Shown in pieces: positions 6,107-57,728 of a stretch of DNA of 64,000 nt (the first letter of the stretch is position 1; every line of letters begins with the position of its first letter). Source of the DNA: Naegleria gruberi. Taxonomy: Eukaryota. A program made the position numbers and the translations under genes. The stretch lies in NCBI GenBank assembly GCA_000004985.1, contig GG738880.1, one strand, 5' to 3'. The notes beneath the pieces were generated by a model, which saw only the letters and a list, made by a program, of their open reading frames with translations, was not told the origin of the DNA and made no database searches.

Positions 6107-8604
6107 TTAAACATATAATTGTGCTGGAGGTTTAAATGATAATGTTTTACCAACAGGGAGGATGGAATCACTAGTGCCTACTCTTAATTTGTAATTTGTG
6201 GTTTGAGAGTTAACACTTGGTCCATTCAGAATATTGATTGTAGCAATTGTTCCATCAAATGTTAAATCGAACGATCCTCCTAAATAATTCACTCCTCTCA
6301 TCTTGATAAATTTGGCACCCAAAAGAGATACATCTTTTGGAGCTAGCAACATATAGTTGTCATACATTTTCAATCCACCATAGCCATTCTGAATACTTTG
6401 AATAAATCCTCCTGCTCCTGTCAAAAAGTTGAAAGACCCCATATCAAGGAAATGTTTGTAAGGATCAGATGTTTCTGAAATGATATTAAATCTATCATAA
6501 TATTCGTCAATTAATTAGTTGTATAAGATATTGAGAAACTTACGGAGGGTGAATATTTAACAATGATCTCTTAAATGCTTCTGCAGCCAATGTGAAATTG
6601 TTCAAATCCAAATAAGTAATAGTGTGCATAGAATAAGTCATGGCTGGTCCTTCACTCCACATTATCTTGTCATAATATCTAATGTCATTATATCTTATTT
6701 GTGTTGGCATTTCGTACATGAGAGGATAGCCCAATAATACCACATCAGCTTGTTTTACATATTCACCAAAGTAAAAGTTACCTCTTGGGAAACTTGCATA
6801 TTCTGGATGAATTTGGTTGACAGAATCAAATAGAATAGTCATATTTCCAGCAATATAGTTCCACTCTGGAGTGATAGATTTTCCTAAAACAGAAGCTGCC
6901 TTGTTTCCAAATCTGAGAGCAATTTGGGCAACAGCATTTGTGAAAACTTCATTGTCAACACCGGAATACAATGGAAAACCAATACCAAACTCATCTGGGC
7001 CAACAACCTTATTTATATCATAGTGAACTCCATCAACGTTCTTTGTTACTCTGCTAGCCCAGAACTTGGCAATCTCAGAAGCCATTGGATAACCAATTGA
7101 ATTCAACCACTTGGTATCCTTAGTCAATTGCCAGAATAATTGTAAAGCAAATGAAACATCTCCAGTAACATGTTGTTCCAATTCATTAAATAGGGCTATC
7201 AGGTCAACCTCCCTACCAGAAAATCCAGTCTGGAATGGATACATTGCTCCCTTATAGCCATACTTTTTGGCATGGGATTTGGCCTGCTCCAATCGATCGA
7301 AACGATACTGAATGAGCCCTTTAGCAAGCTCTGGATGCAAGTAAGCCAGTGATGGTAAAACGAAACACTCTTGATCCCAGAAAATCAACCCATTATAAGA
7401 ATCGGTAGCAACTCCTCCTGGTGAAACACCCCAATGATAATCCTCTCTGGTACTACTCAACAAGTAGTACAAGGTACTATTAATCTTGGCTGCAAGTTCA
7501 ACATTTCCACCCAATTCAATACCACTCTTCCATAATTCTGCCCAAGCTGCAACATGCGATGAATAAAGCGACTGTTGATTGATAGTGATACCCTTGATAA
7601 AGTCAATGGATGCATCACCCAATGGATCATCTGAATCGATACTGGTTCTAATGGCAGTGAGGTAGGTAAAAGTTGTTTCAGTATTTGCAGATACTTGAAT
7701 ACTGGATGGGAATTGAGATGTAACCACAGCTACTGTAACTCTTTCAGATTCAGGTGTTTCCAAACTTGTGAGTTGACCAACATGACATTTTGTGTTGAAA
7801 TTATTGGTATGAGTACATTCCACTTGTTTGAAAGAAATATCAGCAGAAGCAGGACTATCCAAATTATTAATATTAATAGTAATTGGGAAAGAATTTGAAT
7901 TGGAAACCTCAATTTGATGAACCAACAATGATCTGTACACTCTATGAGCATAATAACGTTGCTCAATTTGTGCATTTGATAAATTAAATCCTCTCAAATA
8001 GACAGCTCTCTCAATATCCAATCCAACTCCAAATTGCTGTAAATTTGGAGAACTCAATTTCACTTTTTGAGTGGCAGGTATTCTAGCTCTAGTACTGTGA
8101 AATCCAATTAATTTCTCAATCACTACATATTTTCCCACATACACTCCACCAACATAGATATTATCAGAATCCACAACAGTTCCCAAATAGCCATTAGAAA
8201 TTGATGGCATAAAATTCTTATCTATACTCCATCAATTCAAATCAATCAATTCATATATTAATTTTTGAATTTTGATAAAGTGTACAATTCCATATAATAT
8301 TCATATAATTTTCAAATATTCATATATATTTAAATCATTAATTAATAGAAATAAAGAACAAAACAATTATATTGTGAATTACAAGACACGTGATACATAC
8401 CTGAAGGCTCATTAGGAACAGCCAATAATTGTCCCTCAGCAATACGATCATTCCAATTCTTATTATTATTATTACTAAATATCAAAGGCTTGTGCTGATG
8501 AAGATGTTGTTGTAGTTCGGCATTGGCAAATAAATATAAATTCACGGAGGATGAAAACATTATCATCATCATCATCATCACTCCATATATCATCATCATT
8601 CGCA

Positions 8605-44443: not shown

Positions 44444-47400
44444 ATGTTCTCTTTCAATAAGGTTTCCATCAACTCTACAAGATTTACCTCCTTTCTACTG
44501 CTCTTGTTTATATTTCTTGCTCATCTTTCAATAACCACAACTTTAACTAATAAGGAAATAATTTTGCTTCCTTATTGTTCCTCTGTGGTAGTTTCTCCAC
44601 CTAGCCAGAGATTATCTTCCAATTCACTCACAATAACCGTTACAGCACCTAACGATATTTGGTAAGTTAACAAACTTTCCTATGTGAAATGTTAAATTTC
44701 TAATAAGGTTAATCGTATCGAATCAATATAAACCTCTTCAAAACACCAATGTGGATGCAACAATACTTCTGAGAGCCTACGTTTTCCTCTCAAATCCACA
44801 AGGACAAGCCAAATACATTACCTCCGCCTCAATAATATCTTCCACTTCATTCACAGTTCAGTTTACCAATCTTGCAGCTAATGAACATTATGGATTATTC
44901 TTATTTGATGGGATGTCCTATTTGGAGGTGGAAACTGGTAGTGCACTTCGATTGGTTCCACTTTCAATCTTGTCAATTCATGAATACTCGACTGGGAGTG
45001 CAGCATTTGATTCGTTTAGTCCACAGAATAGTTATGAAAGTTCGATGGGAATGTTTTGTATGTCTCTGGCAGGTAGTTCTCTTCCTTTGAATTATGTTTC
45101 ACAAGCTGATAATGTGAAAAGTAGTCAAATTGATTCGATTAGTTTGCAATCGAACAAGTTGAAAATGAACGGAAAGTGGAATGGACAAATATTCAATTAT
45201 CCAATCACTGAATTTGAAGATGGAGGTTATACCTATGAATTATCGAATGAAATTACTGTAAATTTCCATTCACTTTCCAATACTCAACTCAACATTCCAA
45301 TAACTTTACAGAGATATTTAAGTGCTGCCTTCGAACAAGTCAATGCTCTTGATCATCCAGACGAAACAGCAAGAACAGCAGATCCATCCGAATTAGAATA
45401 TCTATTCGTTGGATATTCCATGAATTCCTTTACCTACAAAGTTAGCACCGATCCCAACAATTCTCCAGAATGGACACAAAATCTTTCAGATAACTACGCA
45501 TTAGAAACAGACATCCCAACTCTCATGACCTATCCATACTATCGAGCAGAATTCCACGAGTTGACTTCTGGAAATCCACTCATGACCATCATTATTAAGG
45601 ATGGAGTTTTGACCATGTCCAAGAAAGTTCTAGGAACAACTTCGATGGAATGTCCAATGGGATCTGTCAGGAATGAAAATCAACACTTTTATCGTGGCTC
45701 TACTTTTCATTATATTGCCTATTCGACTATTCATCCAATGTATACTTTTGATTATTCCACTAGAAATTGGAAGTTGAATACCCAAATTGATGTGAGCTCT
45801 GCTGATGGAAACTTGGTTGCCAATCTAACAAATTTTGATAATACTCTCTCTACAGAAAGTTCTGATCATTTAGTTTCGGTTACTTTATCAGATAATGTCC
45901 TTCAAGATTACGAAACTTTCTTCAATGAACACGTCATCATTGGAAAACCAGATCACCGAACTCCAATCTCTTCCATAACTGACCTAGCTCTCCTCCACAT
46001 AGACGATCTGGGCAACTCAATCTCCGGTCCTCTCATCACCCAGGAAGACTTTCGTCAGGAACTTGATTGGAATTTTGGTTTTTGTGATGAGAAAGTTGGT
46101 TCTCGAATGGGAAATCAATTGTCAAACTTTTTTTCTTCGACTGATTATACTATTGAACAATTGCCAGAATATGGAACGAGATTGAGTTATGAAGGTGGTG
46201 TGCAAGTTGTAAATTCTGGGTCAATTGAGATGAAGTTTTCAAATCATGAATTTTTGCAAGATTTCACAATTGAAGTTGACCAATCTTTGTTGAGATATAA
46301 GGAGCCAAAGGTTGATTGGTTGAATTTTACGGTAATTCCTGACTTGTCTTCTAACGGAAGAAATGCTACGATTCAAACAGATTCGTATAATAGTGGAGAA
46401 GCTGTTGGCGAGTTTAGTGTCGAATTAACTTGTTCGAATCAGATAATGATATTTAATTCAACTGTGCAACTGTTTAGTAATGTTGGTAGCGGTCAGAATT
46501 TCACATCTAGATTTGATATTACCAGCGATTTCGAATATTGTAACACTTTATCGATAGTTTCTTCTTGTAATATCAGAATTTCAGTAACCAGACAGGCATT
46601 ATGGACCAATTTACAAAAGGAACTCAGTACCACAAGAAGTGTCACTATTGATTATGGTTATTTCATTCCAAGATGTCAAATTCAAGTCAATGAGCCTTTC
46701 GTTTGGATTGAAACAATGTTATTAGAATCTGCTTATTTTACTCTTAATCAAGAAAGAGGCGAATTCACTAACAATATTTTAGTCACCTTGAAAACCAACA
46801 GTTCACAATCAGCATTCAATCCAACAATTAGAGCCTCACTTATTCCAAATATAGATAATCCATTTCACTCAATTGGAGACTTTACTCAAATAATGCAACA
46901 AGAATTTGTCACTTTGAATTTTACAATTAAGAGCAGTAACATATCAAGAATTTTATCTGAAAGATCACAAAATACCTTCTATACATTCAATATGAATCTC
47001 ACTCTATTAGAAACTCATTCTTGTTGGTCAACTGAAGGAAAGGGAGGTTTATTTCCATTTTCCTTCCAAGTTTTATACGAATGTCCTATTGGATACACTG
47101 GAATACAATGTGATATTCCAATTTGCTATGGTTTAAACTCAACCAATCCAAATGCATGTTCAGGAAATGGAAATTGCATTTCTCCAAATAGCTGTGTATG
47201 TCATGCAAACTATACTGAAGGAAACTGTTCAATTCCTTTGTGTTTTGGAGTGAGGGGAGATAACTCTGAGGTATGCTCTTCGAAAGGCTCTTGTGTCCAA
47301 GCCAATGTTTGTGGTTGTGAAGATGGACACACTGGATTGGAATGTGAAATTCCAAAATGTTTCAATATTGCTGCTAATGAGAGTGTTGTATGTTCTGGTC

Positions 47401-50400
47401 ATGGAGATTGTTTTGGCGTGAATAATTGTTCATGTCACGAATCATATTTTGGTTTGAATTGTGAGCTTTCCAATATATTTTCCAATGTTTCGAATAGTTC
47501 ACTTTCTTTCAATATTTCCACCTCAAATAACGAAACACTTTACGAAAATTCAACTTTTACTTCCAATAGATCAATCGTTAGTGATCAGAATAATACTTTG
47601 AACTTCACCGAAAGTATTAGAAATTCAACAATCAATAATTCGAGCATTTCCATTCCTGAAAACTCAAATTCAACCATTTCACAAAACTTTTCAATGGATT
47701 CTAATTTAACAAACATGGTTATTGATAATTCCACAACCGAATGCAATAGTACATTACTTACAATGTTGAACAAAACTATTTCTTCAAATAATATTTCGTC
47801 TAATTGTTCAGGTTGTGAATTTGCAAATGAAACATTAATTGGCAATGTGAGTGAGATTGTTAGAAACACTTCCAATTATACATATCCAAATAATACAGCT
47901 TCTAATGAAGGTATTTCTGCAAATGACAGTTTATCTTATTGTTCGAATGGCTTGGTAAACGAAACAATGACTAATTTAACAGTTATTGGAAATGAAACTC
48001 TCATGACCAATAACAGTACATCGAGCATGAATTCAACTTCTATTGGAAGCAATAATTTGACTCTTTCAAACGAAACTCTTGTCGATATGCAGAACGGAAC
48101 TAGCTTGAATAGTTCTAATATGGAAAACAATACTTCCACAATTTTGGGAAGGAATGAGACCTTAAATGAGACAATTTATGTCAATTCAACAAGTATTCTT
48201 TCAAATGAATCTGTTATAACAAATGAAACCTTAACCAATCAACAAAGCAACTATACTTCCAATTTAGGAAATTACCATAACAATACTAGTCTCAATACCA
48301 CCCTAAACCCAACCAATTTAACACTCAATGCTTCAACAGTAGCCAACAATTCATCAGAAAACCATTTCAATTTCTCAATTCCAGTTTCTGAATGGTCATG
48401 TAACATGACCACCAACATATCCAACCAATGTTCTGGAAATGGCCAATGCACCTCATCCAGAAACTGCTCATGCAATGATGGTTTTAGTGGCCAGCAATGT
48501 CAATTCATCATTCCTTCTCCAATTTGCTCTGGAAACTTTATCCAAGTTGAAAAAATCATTAACAAAGATCAATCAATTTATCTGGAAAGATTAATGATGG
48601 ACAAAAAGTGTCAGAAAACAATTCCTCTCATGACATATAGAGAAGTGCTGTTGGAGAATGTTACCTATAGTGGAATGAATTTGAGTGATATTGTCAAGTT
48701 GTATTCAGTTTTTGTAGATTCGAATGGAAATAAGCTTATTTCATTCGATTCTCGTTTATTACTCGAAAAGAAAGATATGCTGACAGTTTGGAGAGTTGAT
48801 TCACAAGGGTCTTCCACTTCCAAATTGACCATTCCTATCAATTATGGTATTCACAGTGAGTCGACTGGTTCAACATTTGGTTTAATCAAATTTGTTAATC
48901 AAAATAATGAGCTATTTGCCATAACTATGAAAGATGACAGTTCTATAATTGCTGTTTTAAAAGTAGATTTGGAAAGAAAGCAAGCAAATTTATTATTTGA
49001 TTTTGAAAATGAACTTCTTACCTTTTCGAATATTGTAAATGGAAATCAAGTTTACAATCCAATTACAAACAAGACTATTTTCTCAGTTATTGTAAACTCA
49101 AATCAATCCAACTCTTACCTTATTGAAATAGACCTATCAAGTGATCAGAAAAAAGTGTCAGAATTGAAAATTCCTCAGTTGACCATTGACAGTTCACTTT
49201 CGCTTCTTCTTACAAATCCAACAAGTGGTGAACAATATTTACTATCAAGTGGACAAACAGAAACCACAATAAGTTCCATTCAACCAAATATAGAATCTGA
49301 AAATGTCACTTTTACAATTTTGGCATCTGATTCTGATTTTACAATTTCCAAATCGGATACTGTAATTGTTGAGGAGAAACAAGACGAAAGTGAAAGCAAG
49401 GTTGTGATTCTTAATGTTGATACTGGTATTTCACTCATTGTTTCAACGAATCGATTAGTTTCTAATAGAGAAATCTTTTCAAAAAGTTCACAAAAGGTAA
49501 TTTTTGAAAATCCAAATATTTTGTCAATTATGTCAAGTTCAAATTTGGACTCAATTTCACTTTCCATTTCTTCCATGTCAACTTTTAATGTTCCAATTGC
49601 TAGCTCAGTTCAAATACAAATTGAAGGAAGGTTGACTTTGACAGATGTCATTTCGTTTATTGTTTTTAAACATGAAGAATCTGATTCGATTATTGAAGAA
49701 TTACCAATTCAGACATTGAATAGTCGTTCATTAGATTCGTCTTTATACTATTTCACTACGAGGGATGTTTCGAATAGTTTACCTAAACAACTTTTTAATT
49801 CAAAAACATTCAAGGTGAAAGTTTATATCAAATTGTTGACGAATGATTTAATTGGAAATCCAATTTATTTTCCTACAAATATGGAAATTACCATGTTTAG
49901 ATTTAAATTGGAAAATATTTCGCCAAAATTTGGTTTTTATGGAAATGAATTAATTGTTGAATCTTCATTTATTCCAATTCAAAGTTTAATCTATGTGAAT
50001 TTAAAGATTACTGAACTTTCGAATAGTGTAATGACTATTCAGTGTAAAGTGTTAAATCTTACACATTGCAAATTTGATATTCCATTAATAGAATCTGTGG
50101 ATACAATGGTGCAAGTCAAGTTATCAATCACTAATCTTGGATTAGAAACTGTATACGATTCTTTCCATTCTTTCAGATATTTTGATCCATCCATGGTAAA
50201 TGTCAAAGATTTGACACATTTTGACATTTCTATTACTTTCCCAGATATTCCATATGTAAATTCTTCAATCAAGCCATTAATTTCATTTATTCCATCTAAT
50301 GAAGGAACTTTGTTATTATTCGAAATGAACAAAAATGAAGTTTCGTCTAATAATTCAGCAACTTGTGGAACTGAACTAACTCGACAAATAGTTGGATCCT

Positions 50401-51170
50401 CCGATTTGTTCAACATTTCAAATTCAATTTCGTTTGATGTGAAATTGTTAACTTTTTCAAATATCGAAAATGGAAATTTATTTGAAGTTTGGATTTCAAA
50501 AAGTCAAAACGCAACATTCTTTGCTTCCTTATCACTTTCGAATAGCATTCAAGAATTAACAATTGGTCAGCTCAATATCACTCGAGATTCTGAACTTGTC
50601 AAGAAATCAGTCAATTGTCAGTTTAAATCGAATAGATTGTATCACTTGACGGTTCTTGTGCAAGAATTTAAAATTTCATGGGAATTGAAAGATGTAGAAC
50701 TGAATGCTGTTGAATGTTCAGCTCAATATTCAAAAGATAATTCCAAATTACTTTCGAATAATGGAAATGTGAAAGGATATCAAGTTGCTATTGGTCAAAG
50801 TTTCGAATGTAGTCAATTAGTTTCAGATACTGCGATTATTCCAACATTAGCTTTGAGTGGAATGAAGGAAGTTTGTGTTTCTTGTAAAATATTGAATTTC
50901 CTGTCTGCAGAAAAGGAAATGTCAATCGATTCCTTTTTAGGAGGTTTGATTGGTGGCGTGGGAGGTTTCTTATTACTTTCATTGACAGTTTCCTTGATTA
51001 TTTGTTGCATTATTCGAAAGAAACGAATGAAAACATACAATTACGTCTACCATTCCAGTAGAAACTTGGAACGAAACCAGACAATTCAAGATTTATTCGC
51101 AAGTGCTTCTCCATTGGGTGCTTCTGAGGATTTCGATATTATAGATGAACATCCTTCTTATTTCGTCTAG
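44444..51170 (+). CDS. Giant type I membrane glycoprotein with a signal peptide, tandem EGF-like repeats, a hyper-N-glycosylated Ser/Thr/Asn-rich stalk, one TM helix and a short cytoplasmic tail. Proposed exons: 44444..44661, 44708..51170.
   Basis: Exon 1 has the signal peptide (MFSFNKVSINSTRFTSFLLLLFIFLAHLS). A 46-nt GTAAGT...AATAAG intron joins it in phase to the 2139-codon ORF. Four Cys-rich EGF-like repeats lie at about 47090-47460 (C.IP.C.G...CSG.G.C.....C.C...Y.G..C). Dozens of NxS/T sequons lie at about 47460-48400. A fifth EGF-like unit sits at about 48400-48500. The TM helix (GGLIGGVGGFLLLSLTVSLIICCII) lies near 50950. Confidence 0.7.
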
Positions 51171-52514: not shown

Positions 52515-53221
52515 TTAGAGAGTAAGCATGATAATTGTGGAAATAGAAATGAGGATTATGTTCAACACTTGATCAGAGAATGAAGAAGGTGCAGAGTTGA
52601 CTGTTTTTGTGGAGTTTCTTCCTGCAATTACTAGTGATTTAACATATGGATTTTCATTGTTGAAATTTCCAACTGGGAAATAATTACACACAACGATGGT
52701 TCCATTGCTGAATTGGGAAAATCCTGGGACTGTGGCACATTTCTTTCTTGCACAACCTACCTTCTTGGTATTTTCCCAGATCAATTGAGTGTACTGTCCA
52801 CAAACGTGTCCTGATTGGCAACTTGTAGGATAAGTGAAATATTGAGATTCATCAGCCCAACTCTTGACACTTCCTGGAACTATATCTGAAAATCCAATGT
52901 ATAAATTCTCTCCTACAGAACCTTTCCTATAATTATCAGAATGTTCAAAAAGACACTTGTCAACATAACTGGCAGCAACCTTTTCCAATTCATCATCCCA
53001 AACTAAACCTCCCATGCTTGCTGCTGGAGGATTTAATGTCTTACTCAAACGAATTGTATTTTGAGCATCAAGCAAGGCAATCTTCTCAGCTGATGTGAAT
53101 GCATTGAGAGAATTTGTGCTTGTTGAATTATTGCTAACAGTTCCATTATTGACATTGGTACTATTATTGGTGTTAGTGGAATTGTTGACTTGGAGTACCT
53201 TGAATGTAAGGTTTTTGACCA
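52515..53221 (-). CDS. CAP (SCP/TAPS/PR-1-like) domain protein, copy B, with an Asn/Ser/Thr-rich N-terminal region
   Basis: The CAP motifs are present (GENLYIGF, CGQYTQLIWENTKKVGCA, TIVVCNYFPVGNF). The only candidate ATG (53221) gives an N-terminus without a signal peptide, and it overlaps the last exon of copy A in another frame. The start is therefore doubtful. Confidence 0.5.
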
Positions 53222-53845
53222 TTATAATTTCCTCCTGGAAAATAATCACAAACGACTATAGTTTACGAAAATAGTGCTCTTAATCGGCAAGAAGTGTTAA
53301 AACTTACCAATAGTTCCTCCATTGAAATTAGATTCAAGATTAGTAAATGTTGAACAGGTCTTTTTGGCACAACCAACTTTCTTTGTGGTTGCCCAAACTA
53401 ATTGAGTATAATGTCCACAAACCTTACCACTTTGGCAAGTATTGGTTGTATAGTCAAAGAATTGAGATTCATCAGCCCAACCCTTCACACTTCCTGAAAC
53501 CATATCTGAAAATCCAACGTACATATTCTCTCCTACATATCCTTGTCCATAATCATTGGTTCTTTCAGCATTATGGGCCCAAATACATTTATCAACATAA
53601 TTGGCAGCAACTTGAGCCAAGGCTTCATCCCACACCAATGTTTCCATATTGGAGGATGATGGATTAACATTCAATCGAACATTATTATGTTTATCAACAA
53701 GTGATTGTTTTTCTGATGCTTGGAAGGCATTAAGCGTTTGTCCGTAAATTCTTGTGAGCATTAAATTCATCAGCATCATCATCATGAAGAACATTACTAA
53801 AGTGACGATGCTGCTTGAAATCCGAGAGGGTGATTCTATCATCAT
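53173..53845 (-). CDS. CAP (SCP/TAPS/PR-1-like) domain protein, copy A, secreted. Proposed exons: 53845..53308, 53255..53173.
   Basis: A signal-peptide-like N-terminus (MMIESPSRISSSIVTLVMFFMMMMLMNLML) is followed by a CAP domain (GENMYVGF, CGHYTQLVWATTKKVGCA). A 52-nt GTAAGT...TATAG intron restores the expected C-terminal CAP strand (GGTIG|VVCDYFPGGNYNG). Without that splice the ORF stops at ...GGTIGKF*. Confidence 0.55.
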
Positions 53846-54067
53846 CAGTGTTAGAAGTTGCTTTAAGTGTTTTCTTTTGTGCTCATCTTGGAGAAGGTCT
53901 TGAGGTTTTTGTTTGTGTTGATCCACATTTGTTCTTGATTGCCTTAATAGAAACAAGTAGACTTAATGTGGTTATCCGTATGGTAATCTGCAATGGGTTG
54001 TTGAAATAAACAAATTTCTAATCAGGATGATATTGAGTTGCATAAACATGTTCCAGTTACAGCTTGT

Positions 54068-55492: not shown

Positions 55493-55617
55493 TTTTTTTT
55501 CTGTTGATTATTTCAAGTTCCAACATAGTTCATTGTAAAGTATTTGAGTTACAAAATAATTGGTTTGCTGGCTTTTTATTACAAAATTTAATGTGTTGGC
55601 AGCAATATTCAGATATG

Positions 55618-56956
55618 TTAACCCTTCACACAAACAATTTGTTTAAGGGTATACAAAATATCTACAAGATCCTTTTGACTTTCCATCACTGCATCAATAT
55701 CCTTGTAAGCTTCTGGTATTTCGTCTAGAACTCCTTCGTCCTTTCTACATTCGACATCTTTGGTTTGTGCCCTTAAATCTTGAACGGTGAAGGTCTTTTT
55801 GGCTTGTCCTCGTGATAGTTTTCTTCCAGCTCCATGTGAACATGAACAATAGCTGTCTGCATTGCCCTTTCCAATAACTATATAAGATTTCTTTCCCATT
55901 GAACCTGGAATAATTCCCAACTCGCCCTTTTTTGCAGATACAGCTCCCTTACGTGTAATGTACAAATCTTCTCCAAAGTGATTTTCTAATTGAGCATAGT
56001 TATGGTGACAATTGACTGCTACGAGATCTGCTTTGAAATTTGGATCTGCCACTTGTCCTCCTCTTCTCAAAGATTTAATCACTTCCTCCATCATTATTTT
56101 TCTATTGAATTTTGCAAAGTCAGACGCCCAATTTAATGCAAACCAATATTCATCAAAATAGTTAGTTCCCTTAGTGAGATAGGCCAAATCTTGATTTCCA
56201 TTTGGCAGGTAACCATATGTTTTTAACATATCTTCCTTTGCCAGATCAATAAACACACGTCCAATCATATTTCCAACGCCTCTTGATCCAGAATGTAACA
56301 TAATCCAAACCTGGTCTGTTTCATCGAGGCAAATTTCTATAAAATGATTTCCTCCTCCCAAGGTTCCCAAGTGGTTAATATGATTTGATTCTTCAATGCT
56401 ATCTCTATAGGATTGCTTGATATCTTTAAAGTTTAATATTCTTTCAAAACCATTGTGTAGTTGAGTATCCCAAAGGTCAACAACAGAATTTGGCATATTT
56501 CCCTTTTCATGTTTTCCAAATCCGACTGGGATGACCTTCTCAATGCTATTTCTGATACTTGCGAGCGATTTCAAATCAGTGGCCTTTAAACTTGTCTTGA
56601 CTGCACACATTCCACATCCAATGTCCACTCCAACTGCTGCAGGAATAAGGGCTGTTTTTGTGGGAATAACTGTGCCCACTGTACAACCTTTGCCCATGTG
56701 AACATCGGGCATGACAGCAATGTGTCCATGAATGATTCCTTTTTAAGAATTAGATTTGCAAAACGTAAAATTGGTAAGAACACGTACCCGAATTTCTCAC
56801 TCCAATTAATTGCTTCTTGGCTTCCTCCTCGATAGGTTCCACCTTTGATGTCCAATATTTAGCTTCTGCAAAATTGAATTTTGATTGGCTTGTAGAGAAG
56901 CATCTCAATCCCCTTGTTGATTGGTTCAGAAAATTCTTTAGAAGTAGTATTGACAT
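55618..56956 (-). CDS. rtcB: RtcB RNA 3'-phosphate ligase, bacterial/archaeal (E. coli-like) type, with an N-terminal mitochondrial-like presequence. Proposed exons: 56956..56788, 56738..55618.
   Basis: Exon 1 is MSILLLKNFLNQSTRGLRCFSTSQSKFNFAEAKYWTSKVEPIEEEAKKQLIGVRNSG. A 49-nt GTACGT...AAAAAG intron joins it to GIIHGHIAVMPDVHMGKGCTVGTVIPTKTALIPAAVGVDIGCGMCAVKT.... The exon junction reproduces the E. coli RtcB N-terminal region (KMWTKGVPVEADARQQLINTAKMPFIFKHIAVMPDVHLGKGSTIGSVIPT). The total length is about 420 aa, whereas eukaryotic HSPC117-type RtcB is about 505 aa. Confidence 0.75.
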
Positions 56957-57060
56957 TTTTTTTGATCTTCTTCCCAATCAAAATGGAACTTTGAAAGAAA
57001 ATGGCTGATTGATGTATTTAAATTTTCATTGATTTTTTAATATAATTATTGTAAAATAAT

Positions 57061-57728
57061 TTACAATTGTTCTTCATAAATGTTTAATTCGACATTGAAC
57101 ATGTCTCCAAATCTAATTACCATTTTGCCTGGTTTGGTGGCTTTTAATTTTACAAAATAGAAAAATTCCACATCATCTCCTTGTAAAATATCCATTGTCG
57201 AATCAGCTTCCTAAATTAGTAAATTGTATTATTTTAAAATAAATAATTAAATAATTATTAATAAATCCTCACCTTTGATAAAACTTCCGAACTAACAATC
57301 ACACAACTTGCCGAATATTCCTGTGATTCATCAAAGTTCGGATTTAAAAAGTCTGAAATTGTATGGCTCTTAAAACTTGATGAAGAATCCTCGAGTTGAG
57401 CAGGTGGTTTTGGCTCTCTAATCTTGTACAAATCTCCCTTTGTATATTTATTTGATGAATAATACACTACAAAATATTTAATAATATTTAAATATATTAT
57501 AATATTACAAAAAATAATATCATCCAATTATGATCATAATTTTACTTCCTGATAATCAATATTATTAAACCTACCATCAATTTCCGATCCAACACTTTTT
57601 ACTATTGAAATTTGTTTAACTTGTTTTCTATTTTCCAAAGCACCTAAAAATACAGCTTCCTTCCTTCTCTTTTCCAATTCCATGTTTTGTTTGGAGAGGG
57701 AGGAGAGATTTGATCGTGATGAGAACAT
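57061..57728 (-). CDS. Small hypothetical protein of about 165 aa. Proposed exons: 57728..57575, 57466..57273, 57210..57061.
   Basis: Three short ORF pieces are joined by GTAGGT...TTTGTAG (108 nt) and GTGAGG...AATTTAG (62 nt) introns. The phases are consistent and the translation is continuous (MFSSRSNLSS...SEIDG|VYYSSNKYTKGDLYKIREPKPP...EVLSK|EADSTMDILQGDDVEFFYFVKLKATKPGKMVIRFGDMFNVELNIYEEQL*). No family is recognised. Confidence 0.4.

Follow-up and report, generated by a model that had tools for sequence, protein, structure and literature searches.

We analysed a 64,000-nucleotide (nt) stretch of the Naegleria gruberi assembly GCA_000004985.1 (contig GG738880.1), referred to below as the window, in which the gene NAEGRDRAFT_69798 spans positions 55618-56956 on the minus strand. 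This gene almost certainly encodes an RNA ligase of the Escherichia coli RtcB type. It is read from an ATG at 56956-56954 to a TAA at 55620-55618, with an in-frame stop 8 codons 5' of the ATG, and is made up of two exons. Exon 1 (56788..56956, minus strand, 169 nt) comprises codons 1-56 and the first base of codon 57 and holds the leader together with the first conserved RtcB segment (KYWTSKVEPIEEEAKKQL), while exon 2 (55618..56738, minus strand, 1121 nt) carries the remainder of codon 57 to codon 429 plus the stop, that is, the RtcB catalytic body. The exons are separated by a predicted 49-nt spliceosomal intron of phase 1 (56739..56787, minus strand, GTACGT...TCTAAT...AAAAAG; in full, from 56787 to 56739, GTACGTGTTCTTACCAATTTTACGTTTTGCAAATCTAATTCTTAAAAAG). 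Removing it leaves 169 + 1121 = 1290 nt and a product of 429 amino acids (aa), which in an exact-sequence look-up was letter for letter EFC42397.1 / XP_002675141.1 / UniProt D2VLJ2. Because the products are identical, the deposited gene model must use the same intron boundaries. An earlier annotation made from the letters of the window (the sequence-only reading) had placed the gene at the right coordinates, leaving its minus-strand orientation unstated, and had quoted peptide strings that are all found in the sequence; its estimate of about 420 aa fell slightly short.

The product belongs to the RtcB family by sequence and by predicted fold. Residues 49-429 matched the Pfam RtcB model PF01139 from end to end (model positions 1-426 of 426; expect value (E) 2.5e-122, 409.6 bits). 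An AlphaFold model computed with 32 homologues had a mean predicted local distance difference test score (pLDDT) of 86 and a predicted template modelling score (pTM) of 0.85, and when it was searched against the PDB with Foldseek all 16 significant matches were RtcB structures (probability 1.00), with template modelling (TM) scores of 0.64-0.77 normalised to the query and of 0.72-0.77, on the same normalisation, for the best matches. For direct comparison, E. coli RtcB was taken from the annotated K-12 genome and a human RTCB sequence that matched PDB 8ODO completely was used. Identity to E. coli RtcB was 55% across an alignment of 410 aa that begins at Naegleria residue 30, versus 26% to human RTCB, in agreement with the sequence-only reading, which had called the enzyme bacterial in type.

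Residues D95, C98, H188, H205, R209, H302, H358 and R362 were invariant in the 32 aligned homologues. D95-I-G-C98 (56614..56625, minus strand), which includes the metal-binding Asp and Cys of VGVDIGCGM, aligned with D75/C78 of E. coli RtcB and with the GYDINCG motif of the Pyrococcus horikoshii enzyme. The Asp, Cys and His residues presumably act as ligands of two Mn2+ ions, as in the P. horikoshii structures. The codon for His358, in CSCSHGAGR, lies at 55834..55836 (minus strand) and aligned with that of E. coli His337, which is the site of covalent guanylylation (PMC3458531). Judged from its sequence, the product is a complete RtcB in which every catalytic residue checked is intact. The likeness to E. 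coli RtcB (RtcB1, b3421, P46850) extends beyond the active site, where H337/H358 and the metal ligands are kept: the E. coli enzyme has 408 aa versus about 409 aa for the Naegleria protein after its predicted cleavage (see below), the C-termini (...VCVKG) are identical, and the chemistry, a GTP- and Mn2+-dependent ligation of 3'-phosphate to 5'-OH ends, is presumed to be the same. The gene setting differs. E. coli rtcB lies in an rtcBA operon under the control of RtcR and next to rtcR, whereas the Naegleria gene is solitary and carries an intron and a leader.

We then placed the protein among its relatives. The closest database matches were proteins of Naegleria lovaniensis (65% identity) and Willaertia magna (61%) and eight environmental proteins (59-65%), followed by thousands of bacterial RtcBs roughly equidistant at 55-62% identity. 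Bit scores were 470-590 for the heterolobosean and bacterial matches versus 84-98 for the archaeal, Thermus and human RtcBs of the PDB. The two named orthologues, N. lovaniensis C9374_004658 and W. magna ABK040_002136 (61-65% identity), likewise carry basic extensions at the N-terminus and are flanked by eukaryotic genes. A tree computed by neighbour joining from 42 sequences with 100 bootstraps, kinetoplastid and diplonemid sequences not included, recovered a clade of the N. gruberi, N. lovaniensis and Willaertia proteins plus the eight environmental sequences in 100 of the 100 bootstraps. This clade was nested inside the bacterial sequences of the E. coli type ('RtcB1'), and human RTCB formed a very long outgroup branch. 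The protein did not cluster inside the HSPC117 clade, and the claim that it is not of the HSPC117 type holds on each count examined: identity (26%), tree position, and a DVHMGKGC motif where the human and archaeal tRNA-splicing ligases have DVHSGYGF. Human RTCB/HSPC117 and P. horikoshii RtcB share the fold (TM 0.72-0.77, normalised to the query) and the catalytic residues of the Naegleria protein, but are only 23-26% identical to it, are about 75-80 residues longer (the HSPC117 type has about 480-505 aa and the RtcB1 type about 400-410 aa), and act in the nucleus and cytosol together with archease or a tRNA ligase complex.

The environmental heterolobosean-type RtcBs comprise L003 and L004 (ENA metagenome scaffolds, with P0004), P0005-P0011 and P0126. 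They represent eight lineages with leaders of their own; in soil and water metagenomes, then, the family is far more varied than one would judge from the three named species.

The N-terminal leader of the N. gruberi protein had been read as a mitochondrial targeting peptide, and several features are in keeping with this. The 34 residues that precede the conserved Trp35 include 5 K/R, 7 S/T and a single D/E (E31, the first acidic residue), with the basic residues of the leader at K7, R15, R18 and K26. Cleavage by the mitochondrial processing peptidase (MPP) can occur at an R-3 motif, R-x-(F/Y/L)↓(S/A), and R18-C19-F20↓S21 matches this motif at the level of sequence. Codons 1-20 (56897..56956, minus strand; MSILLLKNFLNQSTRGLRCF) are a putative mitochondrial presequence with a predicted cleavage site after F20, and such a cut would leave 14 residues before the Trp, in line with the length of bacterial N-termini. 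Comparable strings are present in N. gruberi proteins that proteomics places in mitochondria (...QQRLFSTLNN and MRRCFSQS in the part of that set covered here, compared with RCFST in RtcB). In the structural model, pLDDT was below 50 at residues 1-7 and 10-27, and the confident fold started at about residue 30. As to an amphipathic helix, the signs were mixed: the hydrophobic moment of the leader (11-residue maximum) was 0.74 versus 0.2-0.5 for most bacterial N-termini, on a measure that is uncalibrated, whereas the one helix in the model, at residues 4-10, was short and of low confidence.

The same character was found across the clade. In all 11 of its 11 members, 21-47 residues precede the conserved Trp, among them 5-11 K/R and 0-2 D/E, but these stretches show no conservation of sequence. 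The 29 other bacterial-type sequences are a set made up of named bacteria, unnamed contigs and the Cavostelium protein P0078, and most of them have 13-19 residues before the Trp and usually 1-3 D/E; the exceptions are P0016, P0018, P0074 and P0078. A second strain provided a further comparison: contigs L005 and L006 (Logan and ENA), both from ERR1078381, an environmental sample, contain an allele 99% identical to that of the window, as genomic DNA that retains the intron, and the L006 coding sequence differs at 12 of 1290 nt (0.93%). Of five amino-acid changes between the strains, three fall in the leader, at codons 3, 11 and 22 (I to T, N to T and T to S), whereas from codon 31 to codon 429 there are 7 synonymous and 2 non-synonymous changes. 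Such fast, composition-preserving change would be as expected of a targeting peptide. We propose that the first 20 or so residues act as a matrix-targeting presequence, cut after F20 as the sequence and its relatives suggest, and that the mature enzyme would work in the mitochondrial matrix. On these grounds a mitochondrial localisation of Naegleria RtcB is probable.

The main alternative is that enzyme and gene are as described, but that the N-terminal extension is no mitochondrial signal and the protein is a cytosolic or nuclear RNA-repair ligase, or has a dual localisation. We regard this as unlikely, and several observations that weigh against import speak in its favour. A search of the mitochondrial proteome table of N. 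gruberi for this RtcB, under its accession, locus tag, name and opening residues, found nothing in the 602 of 946 rows that were covered (PMC8134430, Supplementary Data 2), and the literature yielded no localisation data for NAEGRDRAFT_69798 itself. The report of Trypanosoma RtcB in the mitochondrial matrix is cited with a 'but see also' reference to a second protein map (PMC12699882). N. gruberi has 15 putative RNA ligases, for which a division of labour among repair tasks has been proposed (PMC4408790), and the extensions of some clade members are merely 6-10 residues longer than bacterial N-termini. Against a cytosolic or nuclear enzyme stand the presequence-like composition of the extension in 11 of 11 clade members despite its lack of sequence conservation, the resemblance of the R-x-F↓S motif to those of proteomics-supported N. 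gruberi mitochondrial proteins, and published DeepLoc2 predictions that assign most of the clade to mitochondria (PMC12699882); the hydrophobic run ILLL is also too short for a signal peptide. The targeting claim of the sequence-only reading is well supported by composition, cleavage motif, presence throughout the clade and absence from bacterial homologues, which makes import likely.

This picture agrees with published work. EFC42397.1 and EFC45815.1 were reported as the two RtcB-family ligases among the 15 putative RNA ligases of N. gruberi (Unciuleac and Shuman 2015, PMC4408790). A 2025 study of the diplonemid mitoproteome presented a tree of 1,183 RtcB sequences in which the Naegleria, kinetoplastid and diplonemid proteins fall in 'clade 1' with E. 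coli RtcB1, and most relatives of diplonemid RTCB1 were predicted to be mitochondrial (PMC12699882). In that tree, from which the grouping is taken, Diplonema papillatum RTCB1 (DIPPA_22497), Trypanosoma brucei RtcB and the Naegleria enzyme, which is named in the clade, are all of the E. coli type and nucleus-encoded; the Discoba enzymes are predicted to be mitochondrial, and that of Trypanosoma is reported to be so (PMC12699882). The diplonemid enzyme has been proposed to join the transcripts of mitochondrial gene modules (PMC12699882), and in T. brucei tRNA splicing is carried out by Trl1 and not by RtcB, for which a repair role was suggested (Lopes et al. 2016, PMC4931112). The Popow 2012 review makes no mention of Naegleria. 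The gene is annotated, and earlier work has covered its RtcB group in Naegleria, trypanosomes and diplonemids; what the window provides is a confirmation and not a discovery.

An ancestor of Heterolobosea probably acquired the RtcB gene from a bacterium; to judge from the published tree, this transfer was possibly older than the split from Euglenozoa, and a single acquisition by a common ancestor has been suggested, with the function called unclear (PMC12699882). A different history, in which the gene descends from the alphaproteobacterial endosymbiont by endosymbiotic gene transfer and was kept only in Discoba, seems to us quite improbable. The sequence-only reading had raised an organelle-derived gene as an option, the product is probably mitochondrial, and the clade is old enough to span several heterolobosean genera, all of which would fit such a descent. 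However, the bacterial matches are roughly equidistant, and those best named come from Legionella and other gamma- and betaproteobacteria, not from alphaproteobacteria; the spread of the gene among eukaryotes is very narrow, and the published analysis reads this distribution as horizontal acquisition (PMC12699882). Our neighbour-joining tree singles out no bacterial donor.

Two sets of sequences outside the clade were of interest in their own right. P0078 (EukProt EP01114), from the transcriptome of the amoebozoan Cavostelium apophysatum, is an E. coli-type RtcB of 442 aa in which a basic extension of 51 residues precedes the conserved Trp (MQFARKMAAAMRSPLRSNHINITTIGKRYF...), and it joined the heterolobosean clade in 0 of 100 bootstraps; it may represent a separate acquisition with organelle targeting. 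Among the Logan contigs P0016, P0018 and P0074, two encode RtcB1-type proteins of 410 aa with 29-residue basic N-termini, and the third begins MGKNRKKRKNRKRRKEKRD, which resembles a nuclear localisation signal. These may be further eukaryotic or viral copies.

Several lines of evidence indicate that the 49 nt are a spliceosomal GT-AG intron, as had been claimed. When the intron is read through, a stop is met after 12 codons, while splicing yields ...VRNSG joined to IIHGHIAVMPDVH..., with a gap-free alignment to E. coli RtcB across the junction. A branch-point-like CTAAT lies 11-15 nt 5' of the acceptor. In the second strain, the intron has 3 substitutions in 49 nt plus a 4-nt insertion that brings it to 53 nt, whereas on either side of it more than 100 nt of exon sequence match exactly, so that constraint is relaxed in the intron relative to the exons. 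Only non-coding sequence tolerates an insertion or deletion whose length is not divisible by three, and the confinement of this one to the 49 nt therefore marks them as non-coding. On the other side, the search for RNA evidence drew a blank: an exact search of metagenome contigs for the exon-exon junction gave 0 matches, and a look-up of contigs encoding the 429-aa product found none on record.

The orthologues of N. lovaniensis and Willaertia (1401 and 1290 nt for 466 and 429 aa) and that on the environmental contig P0004 have no intron and encode the junction segment without a break, and the intron is therefore either confined to the lineage of N. gruberi or has been lost from the other lineages. 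The N. lovaniensis orthologue (L001, about 6195-6255) has a loop 9 residues longer (RVLSEYSKTWSHHSPLP) exactly at the N. gruberi intron site. We considered whether it hides an intron there, in the form of a 57-nt in-frame GT...AG stretch overlapping the longer loop, and rejected this candidate, as its removal would delete the conserved I-A-V before MPDVH; the stretch is probably coding. The proposal that the N. gruberi intron is an annotation artefact and the true product the 364-aa open reading frame (ORF) from Met62 (56712), or that the locus is a bacterial contaminant, has a negligible chance of being right and is effectively refuted already, for although on two environmental contigs (P0001 and P0122) prokaryote-style gene callers reported the 364-aa ORF alone, the exon 1 residues that a Met62 start would lack have aligned counterparts in residues 11-50 of E. 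coli RtcB and at the beginning of the Pfam model, the intronless orthologues encode this segment uninterrupted, the frame-breaking indel lies solely inside the 49 nt, and the flanks on both sides are eukaryotic genes at 34% GC.

The surroundings of the gene are those of a compact eukaryotic region. Local GC content is about 34%, and the ORFs are long and tightly packed, with neighbours that encode an ABC transporter, two CAP-domain proteins, a WD40 protein and a large EGF-like protein. With the intron, these eukaryotic neighbours and the identity of the product to the N. gruberi gene model, the sequence-only reading was correct in taking this for a nuclear gene and not bacterial contamination. 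RtcB is one of three co-oriented minus-strand genes separated by spacers of only 125 nt (55493-55617) and 104 nt (56957-57060), and its promoter and untranslated regions (UTRs) must therefore be very short. The 104-nt spacer (56957..57060), which runs from the stop of the upstream co-oriented gene to the RtcB ATG, would have to hold both the promoter and the 5' UTR. The small gene 5' of RtcB may have a 62-nt intron of its own at about 57211-57272 (minus strand, GTGAGG...TACTAATTTAG); a TACTAAT element in this candidate intron, like the branch point of yeast, resembles the CTAAT of the RtcB intron. No tRNA genes or Rfam RNA families were found nearby. Elsewhere in the window, two tandem ORFs at 52515-53956 (minus strand) each encode a CAP / cysteine-rich secretory protein domain (PF00188, E 5e-17 and 3e-19) and are probably the result of a local duplication, and an uninterrupted ORF at 44751-51170 (plus strand) encodes 2139 aa with a single EGF-like domain match and otherwise no annotation.

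Taken together, the explanation that we favour, and hold to be probable, is that NAEGRDRAFT_69798 is a nuclear E. coli-type RtcB gene of bacterial origin whose product is targeted to the matrix and would most likely serve as a mitochondrial RNA repair ligase. From what is known of the family, the Naegleria enzyme would use GTP and Mn2+. His358 would be guanylylated and, after opening of the 2',3'-cyclic phosphate, GMP would be passed to the RNA 3'-phosphate to give an RNA-ppG intermediate; the 5'-OH end would then attack the activated 3' end and the break would be sealed. The likeliest role would be to reseal mitochondrial tRNA or rRNA after cuts by metal-independent nucleases, which leave cyclic-phosphate and 5'-OH ends. 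This assignment is considerably less secure than the localisation: it is drawn from analogy with E. coli RtcB and is not a result, and the neighbours of the Naegleria gene, among which no RtcA, RtcR or archease gene was found, give no hint of a pathway.

It is also conceivable, if doubtful, that the heterolobosean mitochondrial RtcB, instead of standing by for repair, carries out a routine and hitherto overlooked cleavage-and-ligation step in mitochondrial RNA maturation that was ancestral to Discoba and was co-opted in diplonemids for the joining of gene modules. If this were true, the environmental clade of eight lineages would mark a widespread organellar RNA-ligation pathway.

To our knowledge, mitochondria are not generally known to contain an RNA ligase that joins 3'-phosphate and 5'-OH ends. 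Heterolobosea, kinetoplastids and diplonemids nonetheless seem to have placed a bacterial RtcB in theirs. We know of no fragmented mitochondrial genes in Naegleria. Because N. gruberi can be cultured and has a conventional mitochondrial genome, it would be a clean system in which to study the function of a mitochondrial RtcB where there are no fragmented genes to join.

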